Positions 1 through 64,000 of a DNA stretch of 64,000 bases are shown here, one piece after another. Source of the DNA: Melghirimyces algeriensis. GTDB lineage: Bacteria > Bacillota > Bacilli > Thermoactinomycetales > DSM-45169. Numbering within the stretch: the stretch's first letter is position 1; each line of letters begins with the position of its first letter. The position numbers were made by a program, and so were the translations under genes. The stretch spans positions 478,316-542,315 of the forward strand of contig NZ_FXTI01000001.1 in assembly GCF_900182565.1 (NCBI RefSeq), read 5' to 3'. Below the pieces are notes generated by a model. The model searched no databases. It worked only from the letters and a program-made list of their open reading frames with translations, and was not told the origin of the DNA.

Positions 1-276
1 GCGAGGCCGCCCAGAAAGAGAACCAATCCTCCAAGGAAGTGAAGCCAGTGGAATCCTTCTCCTGCCATGGCCTCAAAAATAATATCCTTCATTAAATTCC
101 AGCCATAAATCCCGGCAGCACCGGGAATGCATAGCAATAATATCGCAAGAAGCCGTTGATAGACCACAATATCCACCCCTTTATCTTTCCTTATAGTAAC
201 GCATTATTCTTTGAAACGCCACGTATGATCAGTGTATGGTAAGATAGTACCGGAGAATGGTGACGGGAGGACGGCT

Positions 277-30910: not shown

Positions 30911-31032
30911 AATAAAGTTTGTTTCCTACGCAGGAATTTCTGAATAATTCCGCAGTGCTTGGTCCTAGTTGGATTTAAGTATACTGGAAACAAGTGACAC
31001 CATGGCAAGCTGGTGTCTTATAAACCGTGATG

Positions 31033-31120
31033 TCGGAGGTTCGACTCCTCCATCGCCAGCCGGCGATTAGCTCAGTTGGTAGAGCACACGTGATACTGAG
31101 GTTCGATTCCTCAATTGTCT
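31033..31120 (+). pseudogene. tRNA-like relics: a 3' fragment (T-arm + acceptor 3' strand, 31033-31058) directly followed by a truncated tRNA-like sequence (acceptor-D-arm-T-arm without an anticodon arm, 31061-31120)
   Basis: The first piece is GTCGGAGGTTCGACTCCTCCATCGCCA. The second is CGGCGAT-TA-GCTCAGTTGGTAGAGC followed by 10 nt then TGAGGTTCGATTCCTCA. The second piece has no anticodon stem-loop and its 3' acceptor strand does not pair with its 5' end. Confidence 0.3.
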
Positions 31121-31438
31121 AGTGGACAATGCTTGGCAGCTCCTTTGTTTTTTGGGCTTTTTTAGTGGAATCCTCAGTAAATCTGCGGTGGAAAGTATTC
31201 CATCGATTTACACTGAAGGTTCGGCCTCGAAGGTTGGTGGATACCGGGGTGGTTGATTACTTGATCGTCTGAACTGACAGAAGTTTGAATCAATAGAGGA
31301 GAGGGTTTTTTTCTTTTTTGTTTCATCTTCGGGTACAGAAGGCTTGGAAAGACCGTTCCTTAAGCCAAGCTCCGCCGGTTCTTTGGGAGGGTTCCACAAA
31401 AAGCTTCATTGATTTTACGTTAGGAATGAGGAAATGAT

Positions 31439-37915: not shown

Positions 37916-37952
37916 TATATGTGCTCTGTAGGGAATGTTCCATTGTTTTCCT

Positions 37953-38178
37953 GTGAGTAGAGGTGCGGTCCGCATGAATACCTTCCTGGAGAATCGGCAT
38001 CGAAGAAAGGTTGGGAAAGGGCGTTTCGCCGAAGTAGGAGGGGGTGCCGAAACCCCTCTTGCTGGTCGATTTGCTGAATAAGGAGTCGACTGTCGCGGCT
38101 CTGTCGCGGAGTGCTACATGAGGAGGACTGTTCTGAATGAAAAGCAACAGACGTCTTCGTCCGTTGCTTTTTCTGTTT
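37953..38178 (+). ncRNA. Lysine riboswitch (L-box) with a terminator expression platform
   Basis: Conserved L-box elements are present: GTAGAGGTGCGG, CTGGAGA, GAAAGGGCG, TCGCCGAAGTAGGAGGGG and TGCTGGTCG. They are followed by the hairpin AAAGCAACAGACG-TCTT-CGTCCGTTGCTTTTTCTGTTTTG directly before the lysA RBS. Confidence 0.7.
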
Positions 38179-42139: not shown

Positions 42140-42337
42140 ACAATCCTTCGGGGCTGGGTGAAATTCCCGACCGGCGGTGATGGAGAGTACTCCTCAGTCC
42201 GTGACCCGCGCAAGCGGTGGATCCGGTGAAACTCCGGGGCCGACAGTGAAAGTCTGGATGGGAGAAGGATGAATGTTTCATACTCGTGCGTAGTAATCGG
42301 GAAACCCTCTCTATGAATGAAGGAGGGTTTGGTTCCG
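42140..42337 (+). ncRNA. FMN riboswitch (RFN element) with a terminator hairpin
   Basis: CCTTCGGGGCTGGGTGAAATTCCCGACCGGCGGTGA...CCGTGACCCG...CGGTGGATCCGGTGAAACTCCGGGGCCGACAGTGAAAGTCTGGATGGGAGAAGGATGAA matches the RFN consensus nearly position by position. The terminator GAAACCCTC...GAGGGTTTGGTT follows. Confidence 0.75.
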
Positions 42338-57601: not shown

Positions 57602-57603
57602 CA

Positions 57604-57640
57604 AGAGAAACCCAAGTGAAGAGTCACTTGGGTTTCTCTT
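57604..57640. terminator. Bidirectional intrinsic terminator GAGAAACCCAAGTG-AAGAGT-CACTTGGGTTTCTC
   Basis: 14-bp perfect stem flanked by an A/T run on each side. It lies between convergent resE (+) and the SDR gene (-). Confidence 0.7.
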
Positions 57641-58342
57641 TTATTTTTGCAACTCAGGCGGAACTTGTGGACGCATGATAATCTGATTGTAGATTACGCC
57701 TTCCGGTGCGGTTACCATATGCCATACGGCTTCAGTCACCTGTTCTGCCGTAAGGGCGTATGATGGAGCGGTCTCAAAAAATTCCGTTTGGATGGAGCCA
57801 GGACATATCGTGTTTACTTTGACTTCATCCTTTTTCAACTCCTGACTCAGAACATCAGACAAAGCCATTAACCCAAATTTGGAAGCACAATAGCCACTTC
57901 CCTTGGGAAAAGTGACGGTGCCGGCTACACTGGAGATATTGACGATATGTCCTTTTGTTTGTTGCAAATGTGGAATGGCAAATTTGGAGGTGAGAAACGC
58001 TCCTTTCAAATTGACATCCATCATTTGATCCCAATCTTCCTCCGACAAATCCTGAACTGTTCCAAAACGTCCAATTCCCGCATTGTTGACCAAAATATCC
58101 AGTTGACCAAACTGATTGACTGTTTTCTCAATCAACGTTTTCACTTGATCCGAACAGGTGACATCACAGGGAACCGGAAGGATTTGATCCGGGTATTCTT
58201 TTGCCTGTTTCTCCAACTGTGCCTTGCTGCGAGCAGCAATGGCGACATGGGCACCTCCTTCGACAAAGCGCCGGGCCAGGGCTGCTCCCAAGCCTTTACT
58301 GGCACCGGTGATAATCGCCGTTTTTCCTTTCAAATCGGCCAT
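57641..58342 (-). CDS. Short-chain dehydrogenase/reductase (SDR) family oxidoreductase
   Basis: TGASKGLG NAD(P)-binding motif and a YxxxK catalytic motif (YCASK). Start is moved to the ATG at 58342 after AGGGGG. Confidence 0.75.
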   Translation of the reverse strand: MADLKGKTAIITGASKGLGAALARRFVEGGAHVAIAARSKAQLEKQAKEYPDQILPVPCDVTCSDQVKTLIEKTVNQFGQLDILVNNAGIGRFGTVQDLSEEDWDQMMDVNLKGAFLTSKFAIPHLQQTKGHIVNISSVAGTVTFPKGSGYCASKFGLMALSDVLSQELKKDEVKVNTICPGSIQTEFFETAPSYALTAEQVTEAVWHMVTAPEGVIYNQIIMRPQVPPELQK

Positions 58343-58430
58343 AAAACGACCCCCTGCGTTCGTTGTATCGTCCCAATGGTTCATTTACCCGGTATATTGG
58401 TAAGATAAAACGTTTTTTCGGTGAACAACA

Positions 58431-60011
58431 TTAAAGGTCGATTGCAGTCACTCGATGGATTTCATCCAATGCCTCCAATGACTCCAATAACGTTTCTGAA
58501 ACTTGTTTATCCACATGTAACATCATAATCGCCCGTCCGCCGATGTTTTTCCTGCCAACCTGCATAGTGGCAATATTTACGCCGTGGTCGCCCAGAATGG
58601 TTCCTACACGGCCGATTGCACCGGGACGGTCATAGTGATGGATCAATAGCAGGTGACCTTCTGGTTGGACATCGACCGGATATTGATCAATTTTTACAAT
58701 TCTTGTCCCCAAGCCATTTAGGAGGGTACCGGACACTATAAACTCTCCTTGATCGGTTCGAATCCCCACATGGATAAGATGTGTAAAGCCGTGGCTTTGG
58801 GAAGTTTTTTGCTCAGTTACCTTGATGCCCCGTTCCTTGGCCAAATAGGGAGCACTGACGTAGTTCACATCAGACAAATAGTGGGACAGTGTTCCTTTCA
58901 GGATGATTCTGCTGAGTGGAGCGGTGTCCATTTCAGCCAGTTCTCCGGAAAAGGTAATGGTTATTTCCTCCAGAGCTCCTTCAGCCGATTGAATAGAGAA
59001 GCTGCCCAGCCTTTCGGCCAAGATTTGGTAGGGACGGAGTTTTTCTTGAAGTTCCGCCGGTATAGAAGGTAAATTAACGGCATTTTTAAACGGTTCATCC
59101 CGGAGGATGTGAAGAATCTCTTGGGAAACATCGATGGCTACATTTTCTTGAGCTTCGCGAGTGGACGCTCCCAGATGAGGAGTGGCGATCACTTGTGGAA
59201 GGGTGAACAATGGATGCTCACCGGGTGGCTCGGTTTCAAAGACATCAAGTGCAGCCCCAGCGACCTTTCCACTCTGGATCGCATCAAACAAGGCATTTTC
59301 ATCAATGATTCCGCCCCGCGCACAGTTGAGTATACGGACACCGTTTTTCATCTGGCTGAAGGCTTTTGCATCGATCAGATGCCGGGTTTCCTTTGTAAGG
59401 GGAGTGTGAACCGTAATGAAGTCGGATGCAGCGATGACATGATCCAGTGATGCTTTTTGTACACCGATTTTTTTTGCCCGATCTTCTGTGAGATAGGGAT
59501 CAAAAGCCATGACATTCATGTGAAAAGCCCTAGCCCGTTTGGCAAGCTCTGTTCCGATTCTACCCAGGCCGAGAATACCGAGCGTTTTGTTGTTTAATTC
59601 CACTCCGACATACGCTTTTCGGTTCCATTCTCCCCGAACGATGGATCGGTATCCCTGGGGAATGTTTCGAGCCAACGAAATCAACATGGCAAAGGTATGC
59701 TCCGCAGTGGAAATGGTATTGCCATCCGGGGCATTTACGACGATGATTCCCTGGGCAGTGGCAGCGGGAATATCGATGTTATCCACTCCCACCCCAGCAC
59801 GTCCGATCACCTTTAGTTTTTTGGCATGTTGGATAAGCTCGGCGGTTACCTGGGTCTGACTGCGGACGATTAAGGCGTCTGCATCAGCGATTTCAGTCAG
59901 TAGCTCTTCTTTGGATAAATCGGTTTTTTGAACGACCTTTACATCGGTTGCATCCAACAACTGTTCAATTCCCAGCTTGCTGAGAGGGTCAGTGATCAAT
60001 ACGCGAAACAC
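58431..60011 (-). CDS. serA: D-3-phosphoglycerate dehydrogenase with a C-terminal ACT domain
   Basis: High similarity to B. subtilis SerA (KVIGRAGVGVDNIDIPAATAQGIIVVNAPDGNTISTAEHTFAM). GTG start at 60011 (VFRVLITD) after GAGGAGGAA. The track ORF extends spuriously to 60083. Confidence 0.85.
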   Translation of the reverse strand: MFRVLITDPLSKLGIEQLLDATDVKVVQKTDLSKEELLTEIADADALIVRSQTQVTAELIQHAKKLKVIGRAGVGVDNIDIPAATAQGIIVVNAPDGNTISTAEHTFAMLISLARNIPQGYRSIVRGEWNRKAYVGVELNNKTLGILGLGRIGTELAKRARAFHMNVMAFDPYLTEDRAKKIGVQKASLDHVIAASDFITVHTPLTKETRHLIDAKAFSQMKNGVRILNCARGGIIDENALFDAIQSGKVAGAALDVFETEPPGEHPLFTLPQVIATPHLGASTREAQENVAIDVSQEILHILRDEPFKNAVNLPSIPAELQEKLRPYQILAERLGSFSIQSAEGALEEITITFSGELAEMDTAPLSRIILKGTLSHYLSDVNYVSAPYLAKERGIKVTEQKTSQSHGFTHLIHVGIRTDQGEFIVSGTLLNGLGTRIVKIDQYPVDVQPEGHLLLIHHYDRPGAIGRVGTILGDHGVNIATMQVGRKNIGGRAIMMLHVDKQVSETLLESLEALDEIHRVTAIDL

Positions 60012-61152
60012 GAATCCATTCCTCCTCTGCTGCTTTGGTGCCGGCTCCGGTTTCAACCGGGGCGCCGATCCGTGCCAGTGCAACTTCTAATGCGGATAAA
60101 GCGGTCAGTACATCCAATGGATCGGCATAACCCATGTGTCCAATACGGAAGATTTTCCCCTTCAAATGTTGCTGTCCACCGGCCACTCGCAATCCAAGAT
60201 ATCGGAGTTCTGAACGCAAGCTTTCGACGGACCACTGTTCTCCACCCATAATGGATGTCACCGTTGGGGAAGCATCTCGGTGGTTCGCCAGCAACTCTAG
60301 ACCAAGGGCTTTAACGCCTGCACGTGCCATGTCTCGCATCAAGCGATGGCGATGAAAGACATGCTCCAGGCCTTCTTCCTCCAACATATCAAGAACTTCC
60401 TCCAATCCAAACAGTAGGGAAACTGCCGGAGTGAATGGAGTGGTGGATTGTTCCAGACTGTTTTGGTATTTGCGAAAATCCAAGTAAAAGCGTGGATGGG
60501 AGTTGGATTGAATTGTTGTCCAGGCTCGCTCGCCAACAGCCGCAAAAGAGAGACCGGCGGGTAACATCAATGCTTTCTGCGAACCGGAGACCAGTATATC
60601 AACCCCCCACTCATCCAGACCCGCCGGAACACCACCGATACAGCTGACTCCATCCACGATGGTTAAGGCATCCGTATGTTCCCGGATCGTTTCGGCTAGT
60701 GTTTTAATGGGATTTAAAACGCCTGTGGATGTTTCGCAATAGGTGAGAAAGACGGCTTTGATTTTGGGATGTTTTTTCAAAAAGGTTTTTAATTCTTCTG
60801 GATGGCACGCCTTTCCCCATTCAATATCCAAGCGATGGGTTTGAACATTCATGGAATTGAGGATTTTGGCAAAACGATCCCCGAAAGCTCCAGTTACAAT
60901 AACTGCTGCTTCATCGCCTTCAGTCAGGGTGTTGGCTGCAGCGGCTTCCAAGGCGGATGTACCACTTCCAGTCAAAATCAGTACGGGATTTTGAGTTCCA
61001 AACACCGGTCCAAGGCGAAGACTCAGATTGTGTACAAGTTTGGAACAATCCGGGTCGCGATGACCGATCATCGGTCGATTCATCGCCTGCTGAACCCGAG
61101 GGGGAATCGGTGTGGGTCCAGGGATTTGAAGACGAAATTTGTCTTTTAACAC
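59989..61152 (-). CDS. Class V (AGXT-family) aminotransferase, a candidate phosphoserine aminotransferase forming an operon with serA
   Basis: PLP-lysine motif SGSQKALMLPAG. GTG start at 61152 after GAGGAGGAGAG; the track ORF extends spuriously to 61245. It overlaps the serA start by 23 nt. Confidence 0.7.
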   Translation of the reverse strand: MLKDKFRLQIPGPTPIPPRVQQAMNRPMIGHRDPDCSKLVHNLSLRLGPVFGTQNPVLILTGSGTSALEAAAANTLTEGDEAAVIVTGAFGDRFAKILNSMNVQTHRLDIEWGKACHPEELKTFLKKHPKIKAVFLTYCETSTGVLNPIKTLAETIREHTDALTIVDGVSCIGGVPAGLDEWGVDILVSGSQKALMLPAGLSFAAVGERAWTTIQSNSHPRFYLDFRKYQNSLEQSTTPFTPAVSLLFGLEEVLDMLEEEGLEHVFHRHRLMRDMARAGVKALGLELLANHRDASPTVTSIMGGEQWSVESLRSELRYLGLRVAGGQQHLKGKIFRIGHMGYADPLDVLTALSALEVALARIGAPVETGAGTKAAEEEWIRVSRIDH

Positions 61153-61182
61153 GGTTTCTCTCCTCCTCTGTAAAATGTAAAA

Positions 61183-61465
61183 AAGCCTTTCATCCCACAC
61201 CACTGTCCAGCGGTGAGGGACGAAAGGCCGTGTTGCCACCCTCATTCACTCCGACCTCACAGCCGGAGTCTCATTGGGTCTATTGAAGACCCTGGGATAA
61301 CGGTTCACCGATTCGACCTACTGTGATTCAGCCGAATGACTCAGGAGTGCTCCGCAGCGGTTGGAACACCGATTCGCAGCTACCATCGGCTCTCTGCAGT
61401 TCCGTTTTTCGCCACTTGGCTCCGTCATTGTCTTTTCCTGATCAGTATTTCAAAAAAGATTGTAA
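61183..61465 (-). ncRNA. T-box riboswitch leader (candidate serine-specific) upstream of the aminotransferase-serA operon
   Basis: On the minus strand there is an AGAGAG AG-box, the T-box sequence AATGAGGGTGGCAACACGG, and a terminator GCCTTTCGTCCCTCACC...GGTGTGGGATGAAAGGC + T6 immediately before the aminotransferase RBS. A TTGACA -35 element lies about 290 nt upstream. Confidence 0.55.
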
Positions 61466-61647
61466 TCACTCTAACACGTTAAAGTTATGGGTGTCAACCG
61501 GGAAGGCATTGAAAAATTGTAATCGATTGATTCGGTTTCCTATTGGATATGAAAGAGGCCCATATTTTTAATCCAGCCGTTCCGGGTATCCAATGTGGTG
61601 AATATACCTATGTTTGAGTAACTATGTAAAAGAGAGGATGAGACTGT

Positions 61648-64000
61648 TTGAACCGGAAAAGAAGAAGGAAGCGCACTCTGTCTCGTACATTTCAGCCCGA
61701 AGACGAATGGCTCCTTGACCAGATTACCCGGGAAGAACAACAGGAACTCCATTCCAACCAGTCGGTGGATCATACGGATAAAAATGAAAAAAAAGATCCG
61801 GGAAAAAACCCCTCTGTTTCCGAAGATATTGCAAAGTTAAAAAGAAACCGAGTTGGGGGCCGTTCTGAAAAACCGTTTATTTACACTGGAGATATTGTAG
61901 ACCGGTCGATCACGCATGAAAAGTTGGAAAACAACTGTGTGGACAGTTCCAGCATCCGAACAGGAGCTGTGGAAGGCAAGCATCTCAAAAAAGAGAGCGT
62001 GAATACTTCCAAACTTTCCCGTCATGCGGTTACATCGTCCAAACTGGCAGATAAAGCGGTAAAAAGACATCATCTTTCCGATGGATGTGTCGGATCGGAG
62101 CAAATTGAAAAAGAAGCAATCAAAGGTGATCATTTTGCCGACAATAGCATTGAAGGAGATTGTTTAAAAGACAGCAGTGTGGACAGCCACAAGTTGAAAG
62201 ATCGCTCCATCCATGCATGGCATATTGCACCGGAACAGATCCAAGAAGAACATCTGGAAAATACAGCCATTACTGCGGACAAGATCAAAAGTGGATCGAT
62301 CACCACCCATCATTTAGCGAATGAAGCCATCAATCAATCCAAACTGGCCAGCAAAGCTGTCGCTACTGAAAACCTGCAAAATCGAGCGGTGACAGACCAA
62401 AAATTGGCTGAAGGTGCCATCGACAGCAAACATATTCGTTCCGGGAGCATCGGGGAGGAACATCTGGAAGATTCATCCGTACACTCCCATCATCTGCATC
62501 ACAACAGTGTAACGGAAAAAAAGTTGGCACCCAATTCAGTTGGAAGTTCAACCATCAAGAAAAAATCCATCCGAGAAGAACACTTGCTTCCTCAGGCAGT
62601 GAAAGAGGAACATATTCGGGATGGTGCAGTCACACGAAACAAAGTGGCGCCACGTTCCATCCAATCCAAGATGCTTGATTTGGGAAGTATCCGGCCGGAA
62701 CATCTGACTGATCAGGTGATTCGAGAGCAGCATCTCGGCATGCAATGTCTGGACAGTCGGCATATTCAAAACAATGCCGTAAAGGAACAGCACCTTTCCG
62801 AGAATGCGATCACTGGCAACAAACTGGTTGACCATTCCGTAACCACTTCCAAACTTTCTCCAGAATGTGTATCTACAGACAAAATGATCGACCTGTCGGT
62901 TACCACCTCCAAGTTGGCTGATGAATCCGTTACGGAGGATAAACTCTCTCCCCAGAGTGTGGGAGAACGGCAACTGCGGAAAGAGTCTGTTGCCTCTTAT
63001 CACTTGCAGCATCATATTGTGCAAAATCAACATTTAGACATCAATGCCGTCACATCGGAAAAAATCATGAATGAATCCATCTGCTCCCGTCACATCCAAG
63101 CCAACCAGATCTCAGGGAAACATGTGGCTGAAAAAAACATCTCCAACAACCATCTTTGCTCCGGAAGTGTTCATGGGGAACAGATTGCCGAAAAAGCTGT
63201 CAAAAGAGAGCACTTGGCCGACCAATCGGTTGATTCGGAGCATGTGGCTGAAGGTGCTATTGATTCTAGGCACCTTCGAAAAGGGAGCATTAATCAGGCT
63301 CATCTTACAGAGAAGTCGGTTTCATCCAATCATCTCGGAGATACAGTGATTCAGAATCATCATATAGAAAATCATTCTATCACCTCAGAAAAAATCGCTG
63401 ATGGGTCCATCCAACCGGAAAAACTGTCCTTTAATCCATCCTCATTATTTAGTGCCACCGTTCGTTCCGGTGTAACTCCTTTTACGATCAGCAGAGAAGA
63501 GCCGGAAATTTTAATCACAATTCCCTTGGATAAACCTTTTCCTGACTCCCATTTTGTTCCTGTGGCGATGACCGATCAACCTTCCTGCCAGATTCATTTG
63601 GAAAACCGGGTTAGCAATGCCTTTACCCTTCGGATTCAGTTGCTGGACTCACAGACCGGATCTACGGTTTTAGGGTTTCTGTTTTGGATTGCTGTTCCTT
63701 GCCAAACGGATGCATCTCAGTCTCGGAATGTAGCAGTAATCGAGCCTTTGAAACAAAAGGAAGAAGATTTACATGAGTCATTAAAGAGGGAGGATGATGG
63801 GGAGAAGGCCATCATTCCAAAGACGGATGTGGAAAGTGAGGAAACAAACGAAGTCCCTCTGAACCATTCTCCTTTGTCCAGTGTTCAGATCGAGGAAGAT
63901 CCCACTTCAATGGATGGAGCAGAAGGAGACGACGAAACCACCCAGGAAGAAGAAACCGAAGGGGAAAAAACCTTGGATGACTTTTTGCACAATGAAAAAA
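61648..64000 (+). CDS. Large tandem-repeat protein, 5' partial view (at least 784 codons, no stop before the window end): about 103 consecutive 5-residue units with a 10-residue superperiod [H/K]-[L/I]-x-x-x-[S/A]-[V/I]-x-x-x, followed by a non-repetitive domain and an acidic tail
   Basis: Manual translation from TTG 61648 (RBS AGAGAGGATGAG; an in-frame TGA lies 9 nt upstream) stays open to position 64000. The frame was verified at anchors 61921, 63067 and 63961. Repeats are conserved at the protein level and diverged at the DNA level. The ORF is absent from the track because no in-window stop exists. Confidence 0.6.
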   Translation, partial: MNRKRRRKRTLSRTFQPEDEWLLDQITREEQQELHSNQSVDHTDKNEKKDPGKNPSVSEDIAKLKRNRVGGRSEKPFIYTGDIVDRSITHEKLENNCVDSSSIRTGAVEGKHLKKESVNTSKLSRHAVTSSKLADKAVKRHHLSDGCVGSEQIEKEAIKGDHFADNSIEGDCLKDSSVDSHKLKDRSIHAWHIAPEQIQEEHLENTAITADKIKSGSITTHHLANEAINQSKLASKAVATENLQNRAVTDQKLAEGAIDSKHIRSGSIGEEHLEDSSVHSHHLHHNSVTEKKLAPNSVGSSTIKKKSIREEHLLPQAVKEEHIRDGAVTRNKVAPRSIQSKMLDLGSIRPEHLTDQVIREQHLGMQCLDSRHIQNNAVKEQHLSENAITGNKLVDHSVTTSKLSPECVSTDKMIDLSVTTSKLADESVTEDKLSPQSVGERQLRKESVASYHLQHHIVQNQHLDINAVTSEKIMNESICSRHIQANQISGKHVAEKNISNNHLCSGSVHGEQIAEKAVKREHLADQSVDSEHVAEGAIDSRHLRKGSINQAHLTEKSVSSNHLGDTVIQNHHIENHSITSEKIADGSIQPEKLSFNPSSLFSATVRSGVTPFTISREEPEILITIPLDKPFPDSHFVPVAMTDQPSCQIHLENRVSNAFTLRIQLLDSQTGSTVLGFLFWIAVPCQTDASQSRNVAVIEPLKQKEEDLHESLKREDDGEKAIIPKTDVESEETNEVPLNHSPLSSVQIEEDPTSMDGAEGDDETTQEEETEGEKTLDDFLHNEK

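Follow-up and report, generated by a model that had tools for sequence, protein, structure and literature searches.

Which tRNA is read by the leader upstream of a class V aminotransferase gene and serA in Melghirimyces algeriensis, and do the two genes behind it make serine? The leader (61183..61465) lies near one end of the 64-kb stretch of DNA analysed here (the window), and leader, aminotransferase and serA are all on its minus strand; coordinates are positions in the window and are collected in table 1. An earlier sequence-only reading had described the element as a T-box leader sensing a serine tRNA and had assigned the aminotransferase to serine biosynthesis. We conclude, with a probability of about 0.93, that it is a class I T-box for tRNA-Ser(GCU) that controls an operon of a SerC2/SerC3-type aminotransferase and SerA. 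This conclusion draws on the sequence and structure elements of the leader, their conservation and covariation in relatives, the finding that the specifier position encodes serine, and the linkage of the two genes to each other.

An intact T-box precedes the operon

Scanning the leader against Rfam gave an RF00230 (T-box) match at 61437..61213 on the minus strand, with 95.5 bits and an E-value of 1.1e-19, covering model positions 1-219 of 219. This lies above the gathering score over the full model and far outside what chance would give, and the element is an intact T-box riboswitch, as had been proposed. The hallmarks named in the sequence-only reading were recovered in place: the AGAGAG AG-box at 61395..61390, the conserved T-box or antiterminator sequence AATGAGGGTGGCAACACGG at 61246..61228, and a terminator hairpin followed by T6 ahead of the ribosome binding site (RBS) of the aminotransferase gene. 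A consensus scan predicted a sigma-A promoter just upstream, with 10 of 12 consensus matches and an extended -10 TG, which would place the transcription start at about 61461. The range 61183..61465 is essentially the whole leader, from around this predicted start to the U tract, and the leader is about 310 nucleotides (nt) long.

The comparative evidence comes from 80 loci with relatives of the window aminotransferase (numbered with the prefix L), taken from contigs of one genome per species in Thermoactinomycetaceae, Brevibacillus, Planococcaceae, Virgibacillus and related Bacillales. Rfam scanning of 20 of these loci found RF00230 upstream of the homologous operon in 15. A covariance model of Stem I, built from a MAFFT alignment of 20 leaders, detected the leader upstream of the operon both in the window and at 64 of the 80 loci, with 67 copies in total. 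The T-box is present in 65 of 81 loci (the window and the 80), with a serine specifier in every one.

Stem I of the window leader has the elements of the class. Its base carries AUGA and GAG of a kink-turn (K-turn), its AG bulge AGAGA is invariant in 20/20 aligned leaders, and its distal loop is of the GGUNGNUG type. RNAalifold detected compensatory changes at 14 of 17 Stem I pairs in the unfitted MAFFT alignment of 20 leaders. The covariance model matched 71 sequences, namely the 67 operon leaders and four unrelated T-boxes. Among these, all 17 pairs show double changes and 94.4% of Stem I cells pair, as against 21-50% when the partners were slid, and the observed pairing values were reached by none of 500 shuffles. 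Since the 71-sequence alignment was fitted to the model, the unfitted 20-leader result is the fairer test.

The Stem IIA/B region, with an F-box CCGUUA at 61303..61298 (minus strand), aligns to the Rfam model, and its pseudoknot is putative. A 13-nt insert between Stem IIA/B and Stem III folds as a small extra hairpin, and the Stem III helix is kept in relatives with differing sequences.

The specifier column holds a serine codon

In the Rfam alignment, the canonical specifier position is occupied by AGC, directly followed by the conserved purine A at 61348. The 3' side of the specifier loop reads GG-AGC-A and abuts the CUCC strand of the basal helix. Across the 67 orthologous leaders this column contains AGC in 59 and UCC in 8, both of them serine codons, and the base after it is a purine in 60 and C in 7. 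A stable non-serine codon, the outcome that would have spoken against a serine specifier, was not found in the orthologous leaders (AGC or UCC in 67/67). Reading the column one base off alters the amino acid between AGC and UCC leaders (GAG to GUC or UUC; GCA to CCA), so that only the AGC/UCC register preserves one amino acid. The same column in the four unrelated neighbouring T-boxes holds ACC or AUC, which indicates that it tracks amino-acid identity. On these alignments, the leader is predicted to be specific for tRNA-Ser(GCU), with the specifier AGC followed by A.

The four unrelated Stem I elements, in loci L047, L033, L065 and L076, are encoded on the strand opposite to the operon, at about 2.2-3 kb upstream of it, with columns for threonine (ACC) or isoleucine (AUC).

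The sequence-only reading had placed the serine specifier elsewhere, at UCG triplets within GUCGA and GAAUCGG, which would be read by tRNA-Ser(CGA). Serine is indeed encoded by UCG, and a purine follows each of the two triplets in the window sequence. However, GUCGA forms the 3' side of Stem II in the Rfam alignment, and GAAUCGG belongs to the distal helix of Stem I as its 3' strand, so neither UCG is in the specifier loop, whose canonical position is held by the conserved AGC and A. The GAAUCGG strand also covaries in relatives (AAUCGG, AACCGG, AAUCAG, AAUUAG), its paired UCG becoming CCG, UCA or UUA. We rejected the UCG triplets as specifier and give a leader read by tRNA-Ser(CGA) next to no chance; the serine assignment itself stood, on a different codon.

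The expression platform fits a transcriptional switch for a serine tRNA

The 3' domain contains an antiterminator and a terminator hairpin that consumes the antiterminator 3' strand, so that the two structures are mutually exclusive. The canonical antiterminator is worth just -3.8 to -6.7 kcal/mol, far weaker than the terminator. This is the usual T-box arrangement, in which the terminator wins unless tRNA helps. When the 3' domain was aligned with MAFFT, the terminator arm came out too uneven for pairs to be counted by column, and we used per-sequence folds and motif-anchored counts instead. With each sequence folded separately, 55 of 63 homologous T-boxes passed an automated check for an equivalent hairpin followed by a T run. 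In five of the eight failures an earlier T run was picked, in two the T run is degenerate or interrupted (L001, L012), and L014 fell narrowly under the pairing cut-off. One inner-helix antiterminator pair, counted from the motif over 63 leaders, is G-C in 40, A-U in 12 and G-U in 11, and is unpaired in none.

The antiterminator bulge would contact the acceptor end of the tRNA. Across the 61 leaders scored, it begins with UGGN, where N is U in 35 and C in 26 and never A or G. The discriminator base of bacterial tRNA-Ser is G73, and a bulge base of C or U fits this G. The RBS (GGAGGAG, 61166..61160, minus strand) lies 13 nt past the terminator and is not sequestered by the hairpin, which makes the switch transcriptional (class I).

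The bulge sequence UGGCAAC is common to the window, Melghirimyces (L001, position 2902) and Marininema (L002, position 2847), through a change from C to A at the sixth base of the bulge that is specific to this clade. The leaders of L001, L002 and L044 fall under the Rfam gathering score despite having all motifs present.

Several features weigh against the serine T-box reading. The RF00230 gathering score of 93 bits was passed by just 2.5 bits. Minimum free energy (MFE) folds, whether of the complete leader or just of Stem I, did not reproduce the canonical Stem I, as is usual with the non-canonical motifs of this stem; the codon was therefore placed by the Rfam and comparative alignments, and not by folding the single sequence as had been suggested. 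In place of the consensus GAA, the specifier loop has GG on its 3' side, and the bulge reads UGGCAAC instead of UGGNACC. Finally, no tRNA gene, tRNA-Ser included, was found within the 64-kb window, which bears on the cognate anticodon and discriminator.

The departure in the specifier loop leaves room for a misjudged register. The T-box would then answer to another amino acid, with its codon shifted by one base to GAG (Glu) or GCA (Ala), or with its specifier elsewhere. We consider this very improbable, as only the AGC/UCC frame keeps one amino acid across the 67 leaders and no leader scored has a bulge base other than C or U, which fits a G discriminator. In addition, the controlled genes make serine, and mutagenesis in Paenibacillus polymyxa, discussed below, picked AGC in apparently the same sequence context.

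The Rfam score barely over threshold, together with a simple terminator scan that found nothing in the leader, might instead suggest a decayed, non-regulatory remnant. That scan is restricted to loops of 3-8 nt and to no more than 20 counted pairs, rules that exclude this long, bulged hairpin, whereas folding gives -35 kcal/mol followed by U6. All conserved motifs of the window leader are intact and kept in relatives. A translational T-box is not favoured either, because the RBS stands beyond the terminator and unsequestered, unlike in translational T-boxes. A remnant or a translational switch is thus highly unlikely, and we retain the class I serine T-box.

The leader accompanies serA in most related loci

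Among the 80 related loci, the best match to the window aminotransferase is from Melghirimyces profundicolus (78% identity), and the Brevibacillus aminotransferase-serA loci share 57-60% identity with it. In all 80, serA is directly downstream of the aminotransferase gene. No T-box was found directly upstream in 16 of the 80 (L015, L017, L022, L030, L033-L036, L038, L047, L049, L051, L061, L065, L076 and L078), which belong mostly to Lentibacillus, Virgibacillus, Oceanobacillus, Paucisalibacillus, Halobacillus and Thalassobacillus. L015 and L022, the two of these scanned for other riboswitches, gave zero Rfam matches.

Two Sporosarcina loci, L021 and L050, carry tandem complete Ser(AGC) T-boxes before the operon, and all four T-boxes are above the Rfam gathering score.

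The operon probably encodes the first two enzymes of serine synthesis

The second gene of the operon is serA, for the long form of D-3-phosphoglycerate dehydrogenase. Its product matches the SerA model TIGR01327 at equivalog level (724.3 bits against a cutoff of 454) and contains the Pfam domains 2-Hacid_dh, PGDH_inter (the intervening ASB domain) and ACT. The first gene encodes a PF00266 aminotransferase (Pfam, 84.9 bits, 6.9e-24). Its end at 59989 and the GTG of serA at 60011 overlap by 23 nt, in agreement with the overlapping AGXT-family and serA genes described before. An identical protein occurs on a Logan contig, where an independent gene call gives the same aminotransferase and serA boundaries.

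A further point on the opposing side comes from the aminotransferase, which reaches no NCBIfam equivalog at cutoff. The canonical serC models (serC_1, serC_3) score 31-40 bits on it, against cutoffs above 400. Its best matches among solved structures are serine-glyoxylate or alanine-glyoxylate and serine-pyruvate aminotransferases. Among curated models, those for aspartate-glyoxylate, serine-glyoxylate and serine-pyruvate aminotransferases match it best, each scoring below its cutoff. A serine T-box could accordingly control an enzyme of this other kind, a serine-glyoxylate or serine-pyruvate aminotransferase that works from hydroxypyruvate or in glycine and glyoxylate metabolism. Against this, the partner gene is an equivalog-level serA, overlapping by 23 nt and adjacent in 80/80 loci. 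Moreover, serA-linked PF00266 enzymes, including those of Brevibacillus, have been classed as SerC3, and members of SerC2 and SerC3 are confirmed phosphoserine aminotransferases. We regard a glyoxylate or pyruvate enzyme as unlikely, though clearly less so than the alternatives for the leader. The aminotransferase is probably a SerC2/SerC3-type phosphoserine aminotransferase, a role that had been suggested for it from the gene order and that agrees with published work on these families (PMC9026213; 10.1101/2024.10.14.618325).

A model for serine-dependent readthrough

By analogy with the T-box family and with experiments in P. polymyxa, we infer that the leader binds tRNA and that serine starvation induces the operon. 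Transcription would begin near 61461, and Stem I would fold first. The specifier AGC would then pair with the GCU anticodon of the tRNA, while the AG bulge and the distal loop would form a platform on which the tRNA elbow docks. When serine is scarce, tRNA-Ser(GCU) would be uncharged, and its free 3' GCCA could pair with UGGC (61238..61235) of the bulge. This pairing would stabilize the weak antiterminator and allow readthrough into the aminotransferase gene and serA. Charged tRNA would make no acceptor-end contact, so that the stronger terminator and its U6 would form and transcription would stop 13 nt before the RBS. The products of the operon would be the first two enzymes of the phosphorylated serine pathway.

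Neighbouring genes and other elements of the window

Downstream of serA lies a gene for a short-chain dehydrogenase/reductase (SDR)-family oxidoreductase. The annotated ATG of this gene is probably too far upstream, and the second Met, near 58342, suits the family better as the start. The terminator scan found no terminator between serA and the SDR gene, which may be co-transcribed with serA, and the transcription unit is predicted to be closed by a bidirectional hairpin, which separates the SDR gene from a convergent histidine kinase gene. Among the related loci, the SDR gene was seen behind serA in seven, all from Thermoactinomycetaceae (L001, L002 and L004-L008), with varying spacing; it is absent in the other 73. 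It is possible but doubtful that in this family the serine T-box unit extends through the SDR gene and brings it into the serine-starvation regulon. If so, this uncharacterized dehydrogenase would serve serine or three-carbon metabolism.

On the other side of the leader, a long open reading frame (ORF) diverges from the T-box promoter. Its N-terminus is charged and of low complexity, and no Pfam domain was found in it at an E-value of 1e-5.

Two further riboswitches in the window, for flavin mononucleotide (FMN) and for lysine, score well over their gathering scores (table 1). A tRNA-like element was detected in a 730-nt gap between ORFs. An Rfam tRNA match at 31061..31121 reaches 40.9 bits and lacks the anticodon arm entirely; ARAGORN called no tRNA at 31027..31121. 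At a permissive threshold, RF02553 (YrlA, bacterial Y RNA-like) matches 31027..31089 with 40.3 bits against a gathering score of 69, over model positions 23-85 of 114; its E-value of 2.4e-7, from a search of 751 nt, belongs to a match under the curated threshold. The YrlA match covers a permuted tRNA-like module of T arm, loop-closed acceptor stem and D arm, and the fold z-score of the element is just -1.5. Around the element lie genes for a LysR regulator, an F420-type oxidoreductase, an SPFH protein and a DD-carboxypeptidase. Next beyond are genes with an anti-sigma-factor-type kinase domain and with sigma-70 domains, which we read as spoIIAB/sigF-like. No Rsr/Ro or RtcB gene adjoins the element. 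It may be a stand-alone tRNA-mimic small RNA or a decayed tRNA remnant.

Table 1. Positions of the features discussed. Entries are window coordinates, except for rows that name a locus (L), which use the coordinates of that locus.
Feature	Position	Strand	Basis or remark
Sigma-A promoter (predicted)	61497..61468	-	TTGACA 61497..61492, 18-nt spacer ending TGn, TAGAGT 61473..61468
Stem I	61431..61339	-	Rfam alignment
K-turn 5' strand AUGA	61428..61425	-	Rfam alignment
AG bulge AGAGA	61395..61391	-	Rfam alignment
Distal loop GGUAGCUGCGAA	61384..61373	-	Rfam alignment
Specifier AGC (Ser)	61351..61349	-	codon position in Rfam alignment
Stem II	61336..61312	-	Rfam alignment; AGUA at 61322..61319
Stem IIA/B	61310..61298	-	Rfam alignment, motif positions
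Stem III ACUCCGG ... UCGGAGU	61269..61248	-	Rfam alignment, MFE fold
Antiterminator	61242..61216	-	Rfam alignment
T-box 14-mer AGGGUGGCAACACG	61242..61229	-	Rfam alignment
7-nt bulge UGGCAAC	61238..61232	-	Rfam alignment
Antiterminator 3' strand UCGUCCCU	61223..61216	-	Rfam alignment
Terminator hairpin	61229..61184	-	MFE -35.1 to -35.4 kcal/mol
U6 tract	61184..61179	-	sequence
Class V aminotransferase, AGXT-like	61152..59989	-	387 aa, GTG start, RBS GGAGGAG
serA, D-3-phosphoglycerate dehydrogenase	60011..58431	-	526 aa, GTG start
Tandem T-boxes, L021 Sporosarcina contaminans	Stem I 2307, 2711; T-box 2489, 2903		
Tandem T-boxes, L050 Sporosarcina cyprini	Stem I 2442, 2716; T-box 2635, 2900		
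Unrelated T-box Stem I, L047	660..783	-	covariance model
Unrelated T-box Stem I, L033	474..597	-	covariance model
Unrelated T-box Stem I, L065	38..163	-	covariance model
Unrelated T-box Stem I, L076	75..200	-	covariance model
SDR-family oxidoreductase	57641..58384	-	adh_short 1.3e-61
Bidirectional terminator hairpin	57603..57640	both	17-bp stem, between SDR gene and convergent histidine kinase gene
Long ORF	61648..64000	+	at least 784 aa, runs off window; 790 aa on Logan contig
FMN riboswitch	42140..42273	+	110.7 bits
Lysine riboswitch	37950..38124	+	104.8 bits
tRNA-like element	~31027..31121	+	730-nt gap, ORFs ending 30709 (-) and starting 31439 (+)

Comparison with known systems

There are already published descriptions of the mechanism, of AGC as specifier, of T-box control of serA and of the enzyme family, and analogues have been tested experimentally. 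The leader raises no new question, and the main value of the analysis is annotation, in that serine specificity through tRNA-Ser(GCU) is assigned to it. The survey also lends regulatory support to the label of phosphoserine aminotransferase for the serA-linked class V enzyme of Bacillales.

Compared with the archetypal tyrS, glyQS and serS leaders of Bacillus subtilis, the window leader has the same Stem I (K-turn, specifier loop, AG bulge and distal loop), Stems II, IIA/B and III, and antiterminator/terminator pair. It differs in preceding biosynthetic genes rather than an aminoacyl-tRNA synthetase gene, in small departures in the specifier loop and the bulge, and in the 13-nt insert.

The annotation 'soluble hydrogenase, 42 kDa subunit' is a legacy name for AGXT-like class V aminotransferases. 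The catalogue of Wels et al. 2008 (PMC2494555 supplement) lists serine T-boxes that include those of Bacillus halodurans BH1602 (phosphoglycerate dehydrogenase) and Bacillus clausii ABC1843, and in it Carboxydothermus hydrogenoformans CHY_2699, annotated under this name, is the first gene of a three-gene operon behind a serine T-box (PMC2494555). With the name read in this way, the gene order of the window would already be on record. BH1602, ABC1843 and CHY_2699 are computational catalogue entries, the last likened to the window by its annotation. As relayed in PMC8002221, serA T-boxes had been predicted before, with AGC in B. clausii and B. halodurans and with UCC in several clostridia. B. 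subtilis serA, by contrast, is under CodY control (PMC8002221), in keeping with the earlier remark that it has no such leader.

The serA-linked PF00266 aminotransferases were predicted to be phosphoserine aminotransferases and named SerC2 (Staphylococcus) and SerC3 (Clostridium, Akkermansia, Brevibacillus) by Ashniev et al. 2022 (PMC9026213), who relate both to Synechocystis P74281/sll1559 and name serC3-serA operons in Brevibacillus. Clostridium botulinum SerC3 complements an Escherichia coli serC mutant, and a mutant of SAUSA300_1669 (SerC2) is a serine auxotroph (GapMind 2026 preprint, 10.1101/2024.10.14.618325). A non-orthologous phosphoserine transaminase is also what PMC9997740 cites sll1559 as. 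The window aminotransferase resembles SerC2 and SerC3 in being a PF00266 protein that adjoins serA and falls outside the canonical SerC family; its tie to the confirmed A5I0W7, Q2FXK2/SAUSA300_1669 and P74281 runs solely through the Brevibacillus loci, at 57-60% identity.

The closest experimental precedent for the leader is the serA T-box of P. polymyxa WLY78, which is induced by serine starvation (PMC8002221). Mutation of its AGC at +85..87 abolishes regulation, whereas mutation of UCC at +90..92 or AGU at +95..97 does not, and deletion of the terminator or of the T tract makes expression constitutive (PMC8002221). The spacing of these three triplets is exactly that of AGCACUCCUGAGU in the window leader. 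The two leaders are further alike in their AGC specifier, AGAGA bulge, 14-nt T-box, terminator with T run and control of serA. In P. polymyxa, however, serA is monocistronic behind a 508-nt leader and serC is a separate gene without a T-box, while in the window a leader of about 310 nt precedes the aminotransferase gene, which comes first and overlaps serA. The bulge of the P. polymyxa leader begins with UGGU, whereas that of the window begins with UGGC and continues with AAC rather than ACC.

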